Source: an uncultured Candidatus Bathyarchaeia archaeon
GTDB taxonomy: Archaea; Thermoproteota; Bathyarchaeia; 40CM-2-53-6; JALHTG01
Assembly: GCA_964416035.1 (NCBI GenBank)
Contig: CAYQCQ010000001.1
Span: forward strand, 1 to 52,749
DNA length: 52,749 nt
Direction: 5' to 3'
Shown piece by piece: positions 2,324 to 10,773 of this stretch. Below the pieces are notes generated by a model. That model was given only the letters and a program-made list of their open reading frames with translations. It had not been told where the DNA came from and made no database searches. Position numbers and translations under genes: made by a program. Position 1 is the first letter of the stretch; every line of letters starts with the position of its first letter.

Positions 2324-5266
2324 ATGAAAAGCTGCTACTTACTCAATAGAACCAAGTCAGAGCATAGGATAAGGGCGCACGGATCTGAGAGCTTGGAAGT
2401 GAATACAGCACAGAATGCAAGCAACGCGTTCAGCAGACTAGTGGAGCCGGTCTGGTCCGCTATGGAAGAATTGGGCATCAAGATTCCAACGGACATACAA
2501 AAGGCAGCACTGGATCCCATATTGAAAGGCAAAAATGTTCTCATCGTAGCCCCAACTGGGACTGGGAAGACTGAGGCAGCGCTCCTTCCGATCTTCTCCA
2601 GACTTCTCTCTACTTCTGACAGAAAAGGCATCAGCGTTCTATACGTGACCCCATTGAGAGCGCTGAACAGGGACCTGATGAAGAGACTGACATTTTGGAG
2701 CACCAAACTCAACCTCACATGCGATGTGAGGCACGGAGACACCCCTAGAACCCAAAGAGAACGGCAAACTAGACGGCCTCCCACAATCCTAGTCACAACA
2801 CCAGAGACACTTCAAGCCATACTTCCAGCCAAGAGGATGAGGCAACACCTGAAAAACGTGCGATGGGTCGTGGTCGATGAGATACATGAGCTCGCCCAGG
2901 ACAAGAGAGGGGTCCAGCTTACAGTCGGGTTGGAAAGGCTCCGTGAAGTCACTGGAGAAGATTTCCAGAGGATAGGCCTCTCAGCCACAGTTGGAGAACC
3001 CAACAAGATCGGCAGCTTTCTTGCGGGAGCTGACCGGAACATAGAACTCGTCACAGTTCAAGCGGCAAAGCAGACCAAATTCCGAGTGGAATTTCCTATT
3101 CCGTCCGAGGAGGACCACGACTTAGCGCAGACTCTATTCACCACCCCTGAAGCCGCTGCAAGGATCAATCGGATGAGGGAACTTGCAGACAATCATACTT
3201 CTACACTGATCTTTGTCAACAGCCGGCAAAACGCAGAAATGCTTGGGCTCAGGCTTGGAATGCTCGACAAAGCTATTGCCGTTCATCATGGTTCTCTTTC
3301 GAGAGAAGAGAGAGTCCGAATAGAGAACGAGTTCAAAGAAAGAAAGCTCAAAGCAATCGTTTGTACCTCCACGCTTGAACTTGGAATAGACATAGGTACA
3401 GTAGACCTCGTACTACAGTACCTCTCCCCACGCCAAGTCTCAACTCTCATTCAAAGGGTCGGTAGGTCAGGCCACAAGGTCGAAGCAACCTCCAAAGGAA
3501 CGATCATCTCAGCTCATAGCGACGATCTCCTAGAATCTGTCGCGACGATTGGAAGGGCTCAACAAGGAAAACTTGAGGCTCTGAGAGTCCATGAAAACGG
3601 TCTTGACGTGCTAGCACATCAGATTGCGGGCATCGTGATGGATAAGGACACTGTGAGTGCAGACCTGGCGTTTTCAATCATTAGAAGAGCGTATCCATAT
3701 AGGTCGCTGTCCCAAGAAGCCTATCGCCAAGTCATCGATTACCTTGCAGACCTGAGGCTCCTGAAGAAAGACAAGGGCATACTCAGCAAGTCAAGCCGAA
3801 CGAGGCTCTACTACTATGAGAACCTATCAATGATACCAGACGAGAAGAGATACCCCATAGTCGATGTCACGACGCAGCGAAATGTCGGCGTCCTCGGAGA
3901 GGAGTTCATGACTCTAAGAGCCCGAGTCGGCTTACACTTCATATGCCGAGGACGAGTCTGGGAGATCATGAAGATCTCAGAAGACGGCCGCGTCTACGTC
4001 CTGCCGATCGAAGACCCCACCGCAGCCATACCAGGCTGGGACGGAGAGATCCTTCCCGTCCCGTTTGAGATTGCCCAAGAGGTAGGGCAACTCAGGCGCC
4101 AAATAGCAGACGCCCTAACTGCTCAAGATCCTGAAACCGTAATCGATCAACTCGCAGACAAATACGAAATCGAGAGATACGGAGCAAGGAGAGCTGTAGA
4201 GGAACTCAACGAGCTTATTCGAGATGGAGTTCCCGTTCCTGACAACAATAGGATCCTAATCGAGGTTTTCGATAGGTACATGATCGTTCACGCCTGCTTC
4301 GGTGAGGCCGTAAACAGAACCCTTGGCTACATATTCGAAAGCATACTCTCGGAGAAACGGATCCTTCGAAACGTTTGGGCAGACGGCTACCGAATATTGA
4401 TTGAACTAGCAATAGAGGTCGAAGCTGACGAGATAGAAGGCTTGGTATCATCTATCCTCCGAATATCGCCGCAAGAAGCAGAAGCAGCCTTCAGGAAGTA
4501 CGTCGAGGCTAGAAGGCCCTTCTCATACTACATGAAATTCATCGCCGAAAGGTTCGGCGCCATTCCCAGAGGAGTTACAATCGCCGAGGAGGGGAGGCTT
4601 CAAGATCTGACGATCAGGTTCAGGAATACGCCCATCTACGACGAAACCATTCGTGAAGCACTTCAGGAGAAAGTTGACATCGAAAAAACCCGCCTCATCT
4701 TCTCCAAGATAGCCCTTGGAGAAATCGGTTTGCACATCACAGTTATGCAAGAGAATCCCACTCCCTTGGCCTATCATATATTGAACAAGTTTTCCGAGAC
4801 CCCTGAGATGGCAGCGCCCGAGAGCATAAGAAAGCAAAACATCGAGAGGATGAAGGCAGCTCTTCAATCGGAACATGCACAGCTCATGTGTATGGCGTGC
4901 GGAAAAGAGCAGTCTCAGCTTCGAGTTCAAGCCCTGAACGACCTACCCAAATGCCTCAACTGCGGGTCCGGTTTGCTAGCCGTCCTAAACAAGCACCGGA
5001 TAGCTTCCCTTTCCGTCACAAAGAAATGGTTCGGAGATCAGCCGTTGACGGAAGAGGAACAGAAGATACTCACTCGTACGAGAAGGACCGCTGACCTAGT
5101 TCTGTCATATGGCAAGAGGGGCGTTATGGCTCTCCTCACTTGGGGGGTAGGACCACAGACAGCTGCACAAGTCCTAGCAAAGATGCACAAGCATGAGGAA
5201 GATTTCTTCACGGACCTGTTGCAGGCGAAGCTGAAGTACATTCAGACTAGGCCGTTCTGGGATTGA
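2324..5266 (+). CDS. lhr: Lhr-type superfamily-2 ATP-dependent helicase (paralogue 1) with a C-terminal zinc ribbon
   Basis: - Walker A is APTGTGKTEAA and the DEAH-type box is VVVDEIHEL.
- Motif VI is RVGRSGH, followed by a long Lhr-like C-terminal extension.
- The zinc ribbon is CMACG-x17-CLNCG.
- The start is uncertain. ATG 2324 could be leaderless, while TTG 2393 or GTG 2399 aligns better with the N-terminus of paralogue 2. Confidence 0.9.
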   Translation: MKSCYLLNRTKSEHRIRAHGSESLEVNTAQNASNAFSRLVEPVWSAMEELGIKIPTDIQKAALDPILKGKNVLIVAPTGTGKTEAALLPIFSRLLSTSDRKGISVLYVTPLRALNRDLMKRLTFWSTKLNLTCDVRHGDTPRTQRERQTRRPPTILVTTPETLQAILPAKRMRQHLKNVRWVVVDEIHELAQDKRGVQLTVGLERLREVTGEDFQRIGLSATVGEPNKIGSFLAGADRNIELVTVQAAKQTKFRVEFPIPSEEDHDLAQTLFTTPEAAARINRMRELADNHTSTLIFVNSRQNAEMLGLRLGMLDKAIAVHHGSLSREERVRIENEFKERKLKAIVCTSTLELGIDIGTVDLVLQYLSPRQVSTLIQRVGRSGHKVEATSKGTIISAHSDDLLESVATIGRAQQGKLEALRVHENGLDVLAHQIAGIVMDKDTVSADLAFSIIRRAYPYRSLSQEAYRQVIDYLADLRLLKKDKGILSKSSRTRLYYYENLSMIPDEKRYPIVDVTTQRNVGVLGEEFMTLRARVGLHFICRGRVWEIMKISEDGRVYVLPIEDPTAAIPGWDGEILPVPFEIAQEVGQLRRQIADALTAQDPETVIDQLADKYEIERYGARRAVEELNELIRDGVPVPDNNRILIEVFDRYMIVHACFGEAVNRTLGYIFESILSEKRILRNVWADGYRILIELAIEVEADEIEGLVSSILRISPQEAEAAFRKYVEARRPFSYYMKFIAERFGAIPRGVTIAEEGRLQDLTIRFRNTPIYDETIREALQEKVDIEKTRLIFSKIALGEIGLHITVMQENPTPLAYHILNKFSETPEMAAPESIRKQNIERMKAALQSEHAQLMCMACGKEQSQLRVQALNDLPKCLNCGSGLLAVLNKHRIASLSVTKKWFGDQPLTEEEQKILTRTRRTADLVLSYGKRGVMALLTWGVGPQTAAQVLAKMHKHEEDFFTDLLQAKLKYIQTRPFWD

Positions 5267-5336: not shown

Positions 5337-7322
5337 ATGATCAAAGGAGTGGTCCTCCGCAACTTCATGTCCTACTCCAACGCTTCAGTTCCACTCTATC
5401 CCGGATTGAACCTGATAGCCGGCCCCAACGGAGCCGGAAAGTCGTCAATTCTTCTCGCGATATCGCTCGTCTTGGGCCAAGCATATACAGAGAGGTCAAA
5501 GAGATTGAGCGACCTTATCCGCTGGGGGGAAGACCAAGCCCGCATAAGCCTTCTCCTGGATAATTCTCTGAGGGAGGGAAAGAGGCCATTTCCTCAATAC
5601 CACATGGACACAGTCGACGTAACGAGAATACTGAGAAAAGGAGGAGACTACGCATATCTTCTCCAAGGAAGGCCCACATCGAAAGAAAGGGTAGTCGAGG
5701 TCTTCACCCGGATCGGGGTCAACCCAGGCAACATGCTAATCATCATGCACCAATTGATGGTAGGAAGGTTCGCCTCAATCTCTCCACAAGAGAAGCTGCA
5801 CATGCTTGAAGAGGCTGTCGGCTTCGAATCCTATCGAGCGGACGTCATTGATGCCGATACTCGCCTGAGGAAAGCGCTGAGCGAAGAGGAGTCCCTTGCG
5901 GCGGTTCTGGAATCAACTCAAGAAACCTATCAGTATTGGAAGAAAGAGTACGAAAAATATCAGAAGAAAAGAGAGCTTGAGGAAAAGCTACGACGACTCC
6001 AGAGCGAGTTGCTCTGGGGAAGGGTTGAGCGGAGAGAAGTAACTCTCGCCAAACTCGACGACAAGATAGAGTCCAGAAGAAAAGCCATAGAACTCACTGA
6101 AGCCAAAACAGACGAAGCGAAGGAAGCCCTAGGCACAAGGCGTCGAGCATTGGACAGTGCTCTCAGCAAGCGTCACCAACTTGAAGAGAAGAGGATAGGA
6201 CTGGAGCGTGAAATCGCTCGAACCGAAACTGATGTTAGATGGGCCAAACTCCAAACCCGAAACACGGTTGAGGAGCTTGAGACATTGTCTCGCATGCTTG
6301 CAGGGCTAAAGAATCCCAGCTCAGGCCAAAGTACCGCCGCGACGATGATCGAACCACTCGTCGAACTCAAAGAGCGGCTTGAATCTAGGAAGAACGAGTA
6401 CGAGGCACTTTCGGTCTCTTCCTCACTCAAAGATGTTCAAGCAGACCTGGCCTCACTCATCCAAGAGCTTGAGAAAGCGCGTCAAACGGTAGATACGGCG
6501 ATCGAACGCGTCATAGATGCGAGAGTTCAGTTCGAGGTTCTTCAATTCAGAAAGAAACTTCTTTCAGATGAACTGCGGGGCCTCCAAGCGCAGAGAAGGA
6601 TCGCAAAGCAGGAGCTAACTCCACTCATCAAGAGAGCCGAGCGGCTGGGACCCAGACCAACCAAGATCAAAAACATAGGCGATCTTGAAATGGCGATTGC
6701 TGCCGTGGAGGAACAGGTCAGGCCGCTCGCACACATTTCAGAAGAGGTTGAGAAGATGTACAGCTCGTATGTCGGGCTTGTGAAAGACTTGAGGGAGAAA
6801 GCTGAGCTTGTAGCCAAGAACAGAGAGGAGGTTCTCCGCGAGTTGGCGAAACGGTTTGATATGTGGAAGAGCATAGTAGAGAGCTTTCTCGGTCAGCTAA
6901 GTGACAGATACAACGGCACCCTCAACAGTATTGGCGCCTCAGGAACCGTTCGTCTTGTCGAGGCCAGGGACATAGAGAAGGCCGGGCTGGAGTTGCTGGT
7001 TTCCTTCAAAGGTGGGAAGCCAACCCCGATAGATGGGCTCACGCAGAGTGGCGGAGAGAGAAGCGTGGCCCTCATGGCTTTCCTCTTGGCTCTGCAGCAA
7101 CATATCAAGTCGCCTTTTCGTGCGATCGACGAGTTCGATGTTCACTTGGATCCCCGAAACCGCGAGATGGTTTCAGACCTAATCGTCTCAAGCTTCAAAG
7201 AATCTAAGGAAGAGCAGTACTTGGCAATTACACCTGGACAGATAGAAGCGGTCAAGGACAATGTCCATGTCATAGTAGTACAGAACGTCTCCGGGCTCTC
7301 CGAAATCTCAGAGGTGAAGTAG
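5337..7322 (+). CDS. short SMC-family ATPase (661 aa) with an Smc5/6-like head, short coiled coil and no hinge
   Basis: - The N-terminus is MIKGVVLRNFMSYSN...LNLIAGPNGAGKSS (Walker A).
- The Q-loop region is IIMHQLMVGRF..EKLHMLEEAVGFESY.
- About 350 aa of heptad-rich E/K/R/L sequence follow.
- The C-terminus carries the signature QSGGERSVAL and Walker B/D-loop FRAIDEFDVHLDPRN. Confidence 0.85.
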   Translation: MIKGVVLRNFMSYSNASVPLYPGLNLIAGPNGAGKSSILLAISLVLGQAYTERSKRLSDLIRWGEDQARISLLLDNSLREGKRPFPQYHMDTVDVTRILRKGGDYAYLLQGRPTSKERVVEVFTRIGVNPGNMLIIMHQLMVGRFASISPQEKLHMLEEAVGFESYRADVIDADTRLRKALSEEESLAAVLESTQETYQYWKKEYEKYQKKRELEEKLRRLQSELLWGRVERREVTLAKLDDKIESRRKAIELTEAKTDEAKEALGTRRRALDSALSKRHQLEEKRIGLEREIARTETDVRWAKLQTRNTVEELETLSRMLAGLKNPSSGQSTAATMIEPLVELKERLESRKNEYEALSVSSSLKDVQADLASLIQELEKARQTVDTAIERVIDARVQFEVLQFRKKLLSDELRGLQAQRRIAKQELTPLIKRAERLGPRPTKIKNIGDLEMAIAAVEEQVRPLAHISEEVEKMYSSYVGLVKDLREKAELVAKNREEVLRELAKRFDMWKSIVESFLGQLSDRYNGTLNSIGASGTVRLVEARDIEKAGLELLVSFKGGKPTPIDGLTQSGGERSVALMAFLLALQQHIKSPFRAIDEFDVHLDPRNREMVSDLIVSSFKESKEEQYLAITPGQIEAVKDNVHVIVVQNVSGLSEISEVK

Positions 7323-7324
7323 CC

Positions 7325-8161
7325 GTGGCAAAGAAGCTAGAGAGAGCGAAGCCCCACACAGCCATCGCAAGAAGAGATGTGATCGACATAGTGAAGACGT
7401 GCGAGGCCATTGAGGATCGAAAGTTCAATCCTTTCCTGCTCGACGTGAGGTACGCCCTCAACACCCTAAGGAAATACCTTCCTCACTGGAGGGAGCTTGA
7501 GGACCATTGCCTCGACGCCCATGCCCTTAACCGTCTGTCAAGAGTTCTCAGGCTTCAAGGCAGTCAGCTTAGATTCCAATCCAGCTCCCTCTACGCAGAC
7601 CCTGCCTTCCTCGAAGAAAAGCTAACAGCTCTAACAGTGAAACGTCTCGCCGAGATACTTGTGACGAGCTGGCACCCGATCGCAGAACTAGAGCAAATAA
7701 CCGAACCGTCGATGAGGGAGGCAATCGCGTACTGGAATGTTCTCGCTCCGATTGAGGAGCGGTGGAGGAGGTTTGAGATGGGAAGTTCTGCTCCTCCCGG
7801 GTTCCTTGAGTCAGAGGATCTAGACAAGATCGGGGTCCAAGCCAAAGAGACATTTGAGGAAACTCTATCAAAACTCTGGAGGCAGCTCAAGGAGGAGTCT
7901 AGCACTGGCGTGGTCGATTATCAAGATTTCATATGCAGAGAAGACTTTCTTGAAACTATTGAAAGAGCAGTCCAAGTGAGCTTTCTAGTTACCTATGGTT
8001 ACGCTAGGATGGTTGGGTCGAATGGGGCCGTGCAGCTGCTACCGAATGAAGAACGGAAGCTTGAACGCCACCCTGTGAGCTTTCCGGTATCTATAACGCG
8101 TGAGGTTTGGTCGAAGTGGAGAGAAAAGCGAAAGCTAAACGCTTCTTCGGCGATAAGGTGA
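7325..8161 (+). CDS. kleisin-like (ScpA-like) protein
   Basis: - The GTG start lies 2 nt after the SMC stop.
- The N-terminal KFNPFLLDVRYALNTLRKYL resembles the ScpA F-x-GPLDLLL helix.
- The C-terminal FLETIERAVQVSFLVTYGYARMVGSNGAVQLLP resembles a kleisin winged helix.
- The 278-aa length fits ScpA.
- The assignment rests on motif resemblance only. Confidence 0.55.
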   Translation: MAKKLERAKPHTAIARRDVIDIVKTCEAIEDRKFNPFLLDVRYALNTLRKYLPHWRELEDHCLDAHALNRLSRVLRLQGSQLRFQSSSLYADPAFLEEKLTALTVKRLAEILVTSWHPIAELEQITEPSMREAIAYWNVLAPIEERWRRFEMGSSAPPGFLESEDLDKIGVQAKETFEETLSKLWRQLKEESSTGVVDYQDFICREDFLETIERAVQVSFLVTYGYARMVGSNGAVQLLPNEERKLERHPVSFPVSITREVWSKWREKRKLNASSAIR

Positions 8162-8685
8162 AGAGAGCTACGCATCTTCTCCTCTTCCGTAGAGGAAAGC
8201 TGCCTGGAGCGAAGGGCTGGGAGCTAAGGGCAAGGCTGGGAGAAGACTATGAGGAGATTCTCAGACAGCTCAACGAACTCCTCGATAATGTCGACCTAGA
8301 AGTGAAGACAATAGAGTCAACAGCCGGCGTCGCATCGTTTGGGGAGACGCTTACGCCTGAGTCGCGTTACGTGGCAACACTAAAGGGCACAATAAGCCTG
8401 AGGGAGGCAAGGATGTGCGGCTGGAGGATCGACAGCCTCGCTGGGCTAGCCATCGCCATAGCTTACGTCGTTTCAAAACAGGGAAAGGCCCCAAGGAAAG
8501 AAGTTGAGAAGATCCTCGCAAGGAAATTCGGCAAGTGGAGAGCCATGGCTATGACCGACGCTTTTTCAAGAGTGGGATACTTTGGCGAGGACGAATCAGG
8601 TATGCTCTATTTGGACTGGAGAACCAGAGCTGAAGTGGACCTCAGAACCCTTATGTCAGTACTGGCCGAGGCAAGATTCGAATAG
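8158..8685 (+). CDS. ScpB/KITE-like tandem winged-helix protein
   Basis: - The track ORF starts at 8107, but GTG 8158 overlaps the upstream TGA (GTGA), which is a typical coupled start.
- THLLLFRRGKLPGAKGWELRARLGEDYEEILRQLNELL resembles ScpB winged helix 1.
- DSLAGLAIAIAYVVSKQGKAPRKEVEKILARKFG resembles ScpB winged helix 2. Confidence 0.5.
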   Translation: MKRATHLLLFRRGKLPGAKGWELRARLGEDYEEILRQLNELLDNVDLEVKTIESTAGVASFGETLTPESRYVATLKGTISLREARMCGWRIDSLAGLAIAIAYVVSKQGKAPRKEVEKILARKFGKWRAMAMTDAFSRVGYFGEDESGMLYLDWRTRAEVDLRTLMSVLAEARFE

Positions 8686-8724: not shown

Positions 8725-9144
8725 CTAGTATTTCTCGATCGTTCCACTTATGTGCCCTGTCTTGAGCAGGGCAAGATAATGGACAAGCTTGGGTACTCTC
8801 ATTTTTCCAGTATTATGTATTCTTTCGATTCTGCGGAACGCCTCTTTATCCACGTCCGCGTCAAAGATCAACTCACCGTTGTTCTCCACACGGAACGATC
8901 CAACTTCGCCGTAGATGCCCATAATATCTGACTTGGATAGGATTACAGATCCTCCGGAGATCACGATCTTTTTCGGATCCAATGGCCTTTCGGAGTCGCT
9001 ACTCAGCTCGCCCACGTAGCCTCGCATAGCCTCATTTACGAGATCTGCTACATTTTTGCCCTGTTCCTTTGCCCTTCCAATCAGCTTACTGTAGACCTGC
9101 TTATCGAGGCCACGGATTAAGACAGTGTTAGAGCCGCTTGCCAA
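8725..9144 (-). CDS. ribbon-helix-helix (CopG/Arc-like) regulator with an unassigned beta-rich C-terminal domain
   Basis: - The N-terminal TVLIRGLDKQVYSKLIGRAKEQGKNVADLVNEAMRGY fits the RHH strand-helix-helix pattern.
- It has a TTG start with GGAGG about 10 nt upstream.
- A palindromic operator candidate sits in its promoter. Confidence 0.6.
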   Translation of the reverse strand: MASGSNTVLIRGLDKQVYSKLIGRAKEQGKNVADLVNEAMRGYVGELSSDSERPLDPKKIVISGGSVILSKSDIMGIYGEVGSFRVENNGELIFDADVDKEAFRRIERIHNTGKMRVPKLVHYLALLKTGHISGTIEKY

Positions 9145-10577: not shown

Positions 10578-10698
10578 GTTGGCGGCCATAGCTGGGAGCT
10601 AGGACCCGTACCCATTTCGAACACGGCAGTGAATCTCCCAGGCGATTCAGGCTGTAGTGTGGTGCGAAAGCCCATGCCAAACTTGGACAGCTGCCAGC
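10578..10698 (+). rRNA. 5S ribosomal RNA (not linked to 16S/23S in this window)
   Basis: - The sequence GUUGGCGGCCAUAGC...CCCAUUUCGAACACGGCAGUGAAUC...GCUGCCAGC matches the 5S consensus core (CAUUUCGAAC.CGG.AGU.AA).
- The 5' and 3' ends form a 9-bp helix I. Confidence 0.9.
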
Positions 10699-10773
10699 TC
10701 CATTCGAATGCCCAATTAAGGTTTATAACAGTCACTTAACAGTCTTAGGGAAGATTCGCCAGAGGCACTTCAG

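Follow-up and report, generated by a model that had tools for sequence, protein, structure and literature searches.

The archaeal SMC (structural maintenance of chromosomes) proteins related to eukaryotic Smc5 and Smc6 have been described in three studies (Yoshinaga & Inagaki 2021, PMC8665677; Yoshinaga et al. 2022, PMC9389158; van Hooff et al. 2025, bioRxiv 10.1101/2024.01.07.573240), the last of which reported operons combining the SMC gene with those of an Nse4-related kleisin and an Nse1/3-like KITE protein in TACK and Asgard archaea, beside a condensin/cohesin-like operon. The DNA analysed here (the window) is a stretch of 52,749 nucleotides from an uncultured Candidatus Bathyarchaeia archaeon (assembly GCA_964416035.1, contig CAYQCQ010000001.1, positions 1 to 52,749 of the forward strand), and it carries a three-gene operon of this kind that opens with the SMC gene P0002. 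The locus agrees with the published complex in its clade, its gene content, its lineage (TACK, including Bathyarchaeia) and its coexistence with Smc-ScpAB. The difference lies in the SMC protein itself, because the published accounts treat the archaeal SMC5/6-related proteins as ordinary head-arm-hinge SMCs, whereas the window protein has no hinge and its arms are of half length. In the main texts of both Yoshinaga papers and of van Hooff et al. the hinge appears merely as general background, the supplements of the latter are silent on it, and a 2023 structural review of SMC complexes likewise leaves hinge loss in this group unmentioned. The class of complex is thus already published, while these accounts of it make no mention of the hinge-less variant.

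Several other described systems share part of this architecture. With the core of eukaryotic Smc5/6 the window locus has in common its best head sequence matches, an Nse4-like kleisin winged helix, a predicted KITE fold like those of Nse1 and Nse3, and a kleisin devoid of a long middle linker. The eukaryotic complex is, however, a heterodimer of hinge-joined subunits of ~1,100 amino acids (aa), with Nse2 on the Smc5 arm, Nse5/6 and a RING domain on Nse1, whereas the single 661-aa SMC gene of the window implies a homodimer, the hinge is absent, and the 192-aa KITE protein shows no RING; no Nse2, Nse5 or Nse6 gene is evident beside the window operon. Rad50/SbcC, ClsN and Sph1/2 resemble P0002 in joining an SMC-type head to an antiparallel coiled coil that has no hinge domain, but they pair by a central CxxC zinc hook and work without kleisin or KITE, while P0002 is cysteine-free and only a 1,016-1,071-aa paralogue within its family has the CxxC motif. 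RecN also has a short coiled coil with neither hinge nor hook; unlike P0002 it is confined to bacteria, has no kleisin or KITE, and dimerises by a defined interface at the coiled-coil tip.

The likeness extends to the "hinge-less" SMC homologues of marine Actinobacteria, flagged as new SMC biology, which consist of head and coiled coil with neither hinge nor CxxC; these are bacterial, annotated as COG1196 and outside the Smc5/6 clade, and their kleisin/KITE context is unreported there (PMC12153180). Finally, the Mini-Smc and Smc(Zinc-hook) chimeras of Bacillus subtilis showed that the dimerisation fold is interchangeable and the arms can be shortened, much as hinge, loop and hook all occur naturally in the P0002 family (see below), although these were laboratory constructs that always kept some dimerisation domain, no functional bare-loop construct being reported there (Burmann et al. 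2017, PMC5344682). The large-scale surveys of arm length were seeded on hinge alignments (PMC5344682), so that hinge-less proteins would be invisible to them.

The analysis indicates that P0002 is probably the SMC subunit of an archaeal Smc5/6-related complex, in a naturally hinge-less and half-length form. Its architecture, the lengths and motifs of its orthologues, its place in the SMC tree and its kleisin and KITE partner genes carry this assignment.

Architecture of P0002

The gene and the parts of its product are the following:

5337-7322, + strand: SMC ATPase gene P0002, 661 aa; open reading frame with a Pfam SMC_N match (2.6e-33) over residues 1-647, grouping with Smc5/Smc6 in the tree
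5337-5825, + strand: N-terminal half of the head, residues 1-163, with Walker A GPNGAGKS at 29-36 and the Q-loop Q139; from invariant alignment columns and AlphaFold2
5826-6308, + strand: N-terminal arm helix, residues 164-324, from AlphaFold2; conserved neck residues W201, Y205, L214, L221, E224 and W227
6306-6356, + strand: central stretch LKNPSSGQSTAATMIEP, residues 324-340, whose core (325-333) is the turn at the coiled-coil apex; from the translation and AlphaFold2
6336-6926, + strand: C-terminal arm, residues 334-530, with helices 334-359, 363-437 and 470-530 and a joint-like interruption at 438-469; from AlphaFold2 and the Foldseek match 5xei
6927-7319, + strand: C-terminal half of the head, residues 531-661, with SGGE at 571-574, Walker B D598-E599, the D-loop and H644; from invariant columns of alignment A1

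Two alignments were used, one of the closer relatives at 50% identity or more (A1) and a broader one (A2). Walker A, Q139, SGGE, D598-E599 and H644 are all invariant in A1, most of them also in A2, and the secondary structure given by AlphaFold2 for residues 1-163 agrees with a head domain; these motifs show that P0002 carries a complete and conserved ABC-type SMC head. A search of solved structures by sequence returned yeast Smc5 as the best match (7.5e-35), followed by Pyrococcus Smc and Smc6.

The arms and the apex were modelled with AlphaFold2 from a 42-sequence alignment (mean predicted local distance difference test, pLDDT, 83; predicted template modelling score, pTM, 0.52). The model has a single unbroken helix of 161 residues (164-324), a coil of nine residues (325-333; pLDDT below 50 at 327-333) and a series of helices returning to the head (334-359, 363-437, 447-464 and 470-530), with no globular central domain or hinge fold predicted. 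The midpoint of the protein, residue 331, falls inside the LKNPSSGQSTAATMIEP stretch. The N-terminal strand of ~160 residues would measure roughly 22-24 nm as a canonical coiled coil, while the C-terminal side counts 197 residues including the joint-like insertion. Both arms are poor in Gly and Pro, and their fraction of E, K, R, Q, L and A (0.66 and 0.57) exceeds that of residues 1-163 (0.39). The conserved interruption at 438-469, a loop, a short helix and another loop, is the counterpart of the SMC joint; in A1 the residues conserved there are G438, I454, E458, E459, P463 and S468. Foldseek matched the whole model best to 5xei, the head, coiled coil and joint of Pyrococcus Smc, and then to full-length Smc6 and Smc5.

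Neither of the usual apex devices is present. P0002 has no Pfam SMC_hinge match, and a hinge hidden Markov model (HMM) built from three hinge-bearing relatives, with the related protein P0159 excluded, gave E 0.35 on P0002 against 3e-9 on P0159, the only two proteins to which it was applied. A CxxC zinc hook is impossible, since the protein contains no cysteine at all. Compared with SMC proteins sensu stricto, P0002 shows a split ABC head, an antiparallel arm (of about half the usual length) and adjoining kleisin and KITE genes; the hinge is missing.

The same genome provides a direct comparison. Its canonical Smc, P0274, is a frame of at least 1158 aa with the Pfam hinge PF06470 at 507-617 (3e-21) and, by our reading, arms of ~330-340 residues per strand, about twice the length of the P0002 arm helices. 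A complete operon lies on contig C2 of the window's genome (G000; L009:3320-8041), encoding Smc with its hinge, ScpA (227 aa, 1.8e-6) and ScpB (199 aa, 1.9e-32). The gene complements thus show the hinge-less operon as a predicted second complex alongside canonical Smc-ScpAB in one genome. The occurrence of ScpB in the window archaeon contrasts with the argument of PMC7055376, where archaeal Smc complexes are said often to have no KITE subunit.

An earlier note on this DNA, made from the sequence and its open reading frames, had placed a non-helical midpoint at 6306-6356 between heptad-rich arms of 150-180 residues each, had denied the protein both a hinge and a CxxC hook, and had described its arms as shorter than those of canonical SMCs and its neighbours as kleisin-like and KITE-like. 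All of this is borne out by the model, the profile searches and the P0274 comparison given above, and by the partner genes described further below; nor does the centre fold into anything like a hinge, an outcome that the note had named as contrary to its reading.

Distribution, conservation and phylogeny of the hinge-less form

More than 1,300 homologues of P0002 came out of a word-seeded search. The best 120 of them are 49-97% identical to it and, where named, come from Bathyarchaeia; 119 measure 635-681 aa and one 605 aa. An HMMER scan of 1.84 billion cluster representatives (clustered at 50% identity), merged with these first-stage homologues, yielded 206 proteins of full length; 167 measure 500-700 aa and 39 measure 800-1,200 aa, and none of the 167 shorter ones has a central CxxC. 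In a sample of the phylum, a family member occurs in 201 of 401 genomes (89 of 162 genera), the listed open frames measuring ~550-775 aa if pieces cut by contig ends are set aside; in a sample of the class, the family reaches 250 of 301 genomes and 93 of 108 genera. Three longer frames in the class sample (953, 889 and 762 aa) were considered as possible other architectures and rejected as artefacts, either upstream extensions or an SMC-kleisin junction masked with N. A pattern search of genome contigs with A2 returned, among the matches listed, mostly bacterial canonical SMCs, the family being represented by L012 (Thermofilales) and L013 ("Thaumarchaeota UBA160"), in which the short operon is also found outside Bathyarchaeia. 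The hinge-less, half-length form is the dominant and normal state of the family across the phylum, and in its class it is shown to be ancient, fixed and nearly universal. The "unusual" architecture of the earlier note holds against textbook SMCs and fails within the family, where it is the norm across the window's phylum; the internal deletion that the note had entertained as a sign of a degraded gene gives way to a short form conserved among the orthologues.

Conservation along the protein was surveyed widely in 47 cluster representatives of the hinge-less clade, whose total length spans 548-700 aa, so that the length of an arm strand differs by more than 60 residues across the clade. Majority identity at residues 300-360 is 0.07-0.2, against 0.6-0.8 in the heads, and the distal arm is the least conserved region of P0002. 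Between residues 200 and 500, a majority identity of at least 85% is reached solely at W201, Y205, L214, L221, E224, W227 and Y475. The neck, to which most of these positions belong, is where the kleisin N-domain binds in other SMC proteins. The apex stretch is hypervariable among the homologues, with insertions and deletions of ~0-25 residues even between close relatives and not one conserved residue, and the survey found no conserved tip motif in the clade. The loop conservation that the earlier note had proposed to look for by aligning orthologues is therefore not there. These patterns thus point to a conserved unit of head and neck, plus the joint among closer relatives, with the remaining arm behaving as a spacer that ends in a turn; given how poorly conserved and variable in length the distal arm is, the apex of P0002 is probably just a turn and not a conserved interface.

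The tree was computed with IQ-TREE (LG+C20 PMSF; 51 sequences, 646 columns) and rooted on canonical SMCs including that of the window genome. A 100/100 branch divides the canonical SMCs from a group composed of the P0002 family and eukaryotic Smc5 and Smc6; the identity of the reference rows was checked against the PDB, P0226 matching human SMC5 (9e-149) and P0238 matching SMC6 (3e-89). The hinge-less proteins form a clade of 33 tree rows (100/97) that spans many families. Its sister (96/92) is the P0159 family, 11 clusters of 963-985 aa, in the centre of which the hinge HMM built without P0159 finds a match (3e-9) and several members of which have a precomputed PF06470 match. This hinge-bearing family retains the kleisin-KITE operon (L124:4014-8261), and a search of 400 genomes from the window's phylum at E<=1e-95 returned no member of it. 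The next branch (95/85) is P0207, of 928 aa, whose centre is globular and not coiled. Under the canonical-SMC root, the simplest reading would be that hinge and distal arms were lost once, when the hinge-less clade arose.

Two further lineages bear on the history of the apex. A second, independent short lineage, P0205 and P0208 (633 and 628 aa), is sister (98/97, in the group of P0204, P0205 and P0208) to a short-armed protein of 835 aa with a Pfam SMC_hinge match, encoded by the Asgard archaeon "Ca. Freyarchaeum deiterrae"; this placement suggests more than one loss of the hinge within the Smc5/6-related group. The other is the CxxC paralogue, five proteins of 1,016-1,071 aa (P0143-P0145, P0399 and P0404) in which KPQI(K/R)CDKCGS..(T/S)..QW marks the exact centre. 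As a 100/100 clade they lie several well-supported nodes deep within the hinge-less forms; they are confined to one family of the class and coexist there with the normal short operon; in genome G482, for instance, the short operon (648, 265 and 196 aa; L137) lies on one contig and a 1,067-aa CxxC protein on another. The loci examined are:

L138:1657-4860 (G482): CxxC paralogue
L139:1921-5040: CxxC paralogue
L122:5001-8087: CxxC paralogue

No kleisin or KITE gene adjoins the paralogue in these three contexts. It looks like a lineage-specific form with re-lengthened arms that gained a putative Rad50-like hook.

Kleisin, KITE and genomic setting

The operon SMC-kleisin-KITE spans 5337-8685 of the window, the two partner genes being:

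7325-8161, + strand: Nse4-like kleisin gene P0003, 278 aa; starts 2 nucleotides past the SMC stop codon; Pfam Nse4_C 5.9e-4
8107-8685, + strand: Nse1/Nse3-like KITE gene P0004, 192 aa; overlaps the kleisin gene; start TTG 8107 or GTG 8158

The kleisin assignment gains from the orthologues of P0003, 16 of 20 of which match Pfam Nse4_C (best E 2.7e-6), and from a profile of these 20, which matches yeast Nse4 (1.5e-4), human NSE4/EID3 (3e-3) and, weakly, the ScpA N-domain (0.07). P0004 is predicted to adopt a KITE fold of the Nse1/3 kind: its AlphaFold2 model (pLDDT 85) is matched best by Foldseek to chains of the MAGE-G1/NSE1 complex (5hvq_C, 2.8e-6, TM 0.64), further to the Nse1-Nse3-Nse4 complex (7dg2), and then to JetB, MukE and ScpB, while 3 of 20 orthologues match Pfam SMC_Nse1 and 2 of 20 match MAGE. 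As to its start, TTG 8107 would produce a 55-nucleotide overlap with the kleisin gene and GTG 8158 a GTGA start/stop overlap; the upstream start is favoured, as orthologues conserve residues 11-17 of the longer product.

In 29 of 33 related loci, a set that includes a "Thaumarchaeota" metagenome-assembled genome, the SMC gene is likewise followed by a frame of ~236-299 aa and a third of ~178-221 aa, and the frames mostly abut or overlap. The operon adjoins housekeeping genes such as IleRS, TFIIB and prefoldin, with no nuclease effector beside it. Upstream, on the same strand, an Lhr-type helicase gene (DEAD, Helicase_C, WH_Lhr and DEAD_assoc domains; window 2324-5266) ends 70 nucleotides before the SMC gene; in L124 the hinge-bearing operon is also followed, two genes on, by Lhr, which is missing from L010 and L011, so that it is a recurrent yet dispensable neighbour. 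A gene of 365-366 aa with no Pfam match follows the KITE gene directly and convergently in three loci (L010:9268-10368, L011:5785-6885 and L124:8258-9355), a site where the window has instead a minus-strand open reading frame of 139 aa (8725-9144). The window further contains a lone 5S rRNA gene (10578-10699; Rfam RF00001, 79.5 bits), and no tRNA gene was found across its 52.7 kb.

Pairing, mechanism and competing explanations

That P0002 pairs by means other than a hinge or a hook follows as a sound inference from its architecture. How it does so can be approached from three published results. Hinge-less sub-complexes of yeast Smc5(EQ)/Smc6(EQ) co-isolate solely with ATP, meaning that the hinge is not needed for ATP-dependent head engagement (PMC8327961); in hinge-less B. 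subtilis Smc, arm-arm contacts contribute to dimerisation (PMC5526789); and every SMC complex studied clamps DNA atop its engaged heads, where the kleisin crosses over the DNA and KITEs or HAWKs hold it in place (PMC10512200). By analogy with these precedents, P0002 would most likely form a homodimer held by kleisin and ATP-engaged heads and working as an ATP-gated DNA clamp. Two copies would pair through ATP-sandwiched heads and the kleisin, whose N-domain would contact one neck and whose C-terminal winged helix would contact the opposite cap, and which would itself carry a KITE dimer. DNA would then be held atop the engaged heads and beneath the kleisin/KITE module, with no large hinge-closed ring. 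Side-by-side zipping of the short arms may help pairing, and the arms could serve as lever, gate or spacer, whereas the apex would have no specific role. That the complex repairs DNA or handles junctions is made plausible only by the analogy with Smc5/6 and by the Lhr neighbour.

The main competitor to such a clamp is a ring that the short arms still close, either through a stable dimer of the coiled-coil tips, as in RecN, or through rod-like four-helix packing of the whole arms, which would keep a lumen and could entrap or extrude DNA as a miniature canonical SMC. We regard this as possible, though less likely than the clamp. It would draw on the same arm-arm contacts of hinge-less B. subtilis Smc, on a strong heptad signal in the C-terminal arm (361-400) in the scan of a/d hydrophobicity, and on the sublineage that later gained a CxxC at the tip, suggesting that tip pairing can be useful. 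It fits poorly with the distal arm being the least conserved region and so variable in length across the clade, and with an apex loop of ~0 to 25 residues among close relatives that lacks a conserved tip motif.

Several points speak for caution over the clamp. The closer relatives in A1 all share W302 near the apex, which is as a ring would have it, though the wider clade does not, and a generic coiled-coil tip contact such as that of RecN may be compatible with low sequence conservation. The pTM of the P0002 model, just 0.52, leaves the global geometry of the arms less certain than their secondary structure. The evidence for a KITE in the sequence of P0004 is weak and the assignment comes mainly from its predicted fold, and we infer stoichiometry, pairing mode and DNA-clamp function throughout. 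Nothing in this evidence decisively separates the ATP-gated clamp from a ring closed by tips or arms.

A different proposal is that P0002 serves not chromosome maintenance but defence against phages or plasmids, as an ATPase of the hinge-less SMC-like kind found in Lamassu (LmuB), MADS (mad3) or Wadjet-like systems. The PADLOC profiles mad3 (1.3e-34) and LmuB (1.8e-14) do match P0002, and eukaryotic Smc5/6 is described in PMC9458440 as restricting extrachromosomal viral DNA. Defence ATPases of this kind, Wadjet JetC among them, are however sporadic in distribution and come with dedicated effector or partner genes such as LmuA and JetD. These matches are confined to the head region and no stronger than that of generic SMC_N (118 against 116 bits), whereas the kleisin P0003 and the KITE P0004 have no PADLOC match; moreover, the near-universal syntenic occurrence of the operon (93 of the 108 class genera sampled), next to housekeeping genes and with no adjoining nuclease effector, makes a defence system unlikely.

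It is more doubtful still that P0002 is an SMC-related protein of the Rad50/ASRP (ClsN/Sph) or RecN type and not a true SMC. The layout of a head with a hinge-less coiled coil is common to all of them, and the N-terminal head gives weak NCBIfam matches, yet the scores are far under the cut-offs (ASRP 57.6 against 300 bits; Rad50 models 52-59 against 700-1087; RecN TIGR00634 28.6 against 407.85), and RecN belongs to a bacterial SOS context while the host genome is archaeal. P0002 has no CxxC, possesses the kleisin and KITE partners that Rad50, ASRP and RecN lack, and is placed by the tree with Smc5/6; published trees put the "SMC5/6-related aSMC" inside SMC proper (PMC9389158). Finally, a degraded, non-functional SMC with an internal deletion of hinge and distal arms can be dismissed as next to impossible, for although the hinge-bearing relatives of ~980 aa (the P0159 family) imply that a deletion occurred sometime in the history of the lineage, the loss is ancient and fixed in a 100/97 clade spanning many families, the ATPase motifs are invariant, the frame is intact in hundreds of genomes and the operon partners are retained, orthologue lengths and motif conservation thus refuting the pseudogene reading.

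Current models of SMC action, be it topological entrapment, segment capture or loop extrusion, treat a hinge-closed compartment as essential. The hinge-less Smc5/6-related operon is a natural, ancient and widespread SMC-kleisin-KITE complex devoid of an apex dimerisation domain, and the nearest archaeal kin of eukaryotic Smc5/6; evidently an SMC machine with kleisin and KITE partners can dispense with the usual dimerisation domain. More tentatively, and with no great confidence, it may be proposed that the closest prokaryotic relatives of Smc5/6 work without an SMC lumen, the working unit being a clamp or sensor of head, neck, joint, kleisin and KITE, and the arm apex an evolutionarily free module that passed from a hinge (~980 aa) to a bare loop (548-700 aa, dominant) and, in one family of Bathyarchaeia, on to long arms with a Rad50-like CxxC hook in a paralogue with no adjoining kleisin or KITE genes. 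If true, the hinge and a closed SMC ring would not be required for the core activity of Smc5/6-type complexes.

The finding also bears on scenarios in which eukaryotic Smc5/6 descends from TACK/Asgard ancestors, since most of the TACK versions entered in the corresponding trees are hinge-less and derived. The hinge-bearing and CxxC (putative zinc-hook) members of the family make up a natural swap series that mirrors Smc(Zh) and Mini-Smc. With proteins of ~660, 280 and 190 aa, the operon also offers a compact system for asking what a head/kleisin/KITE clamp does alone, and whether the hinge and long arms serve DNA loading, translocation or repair.

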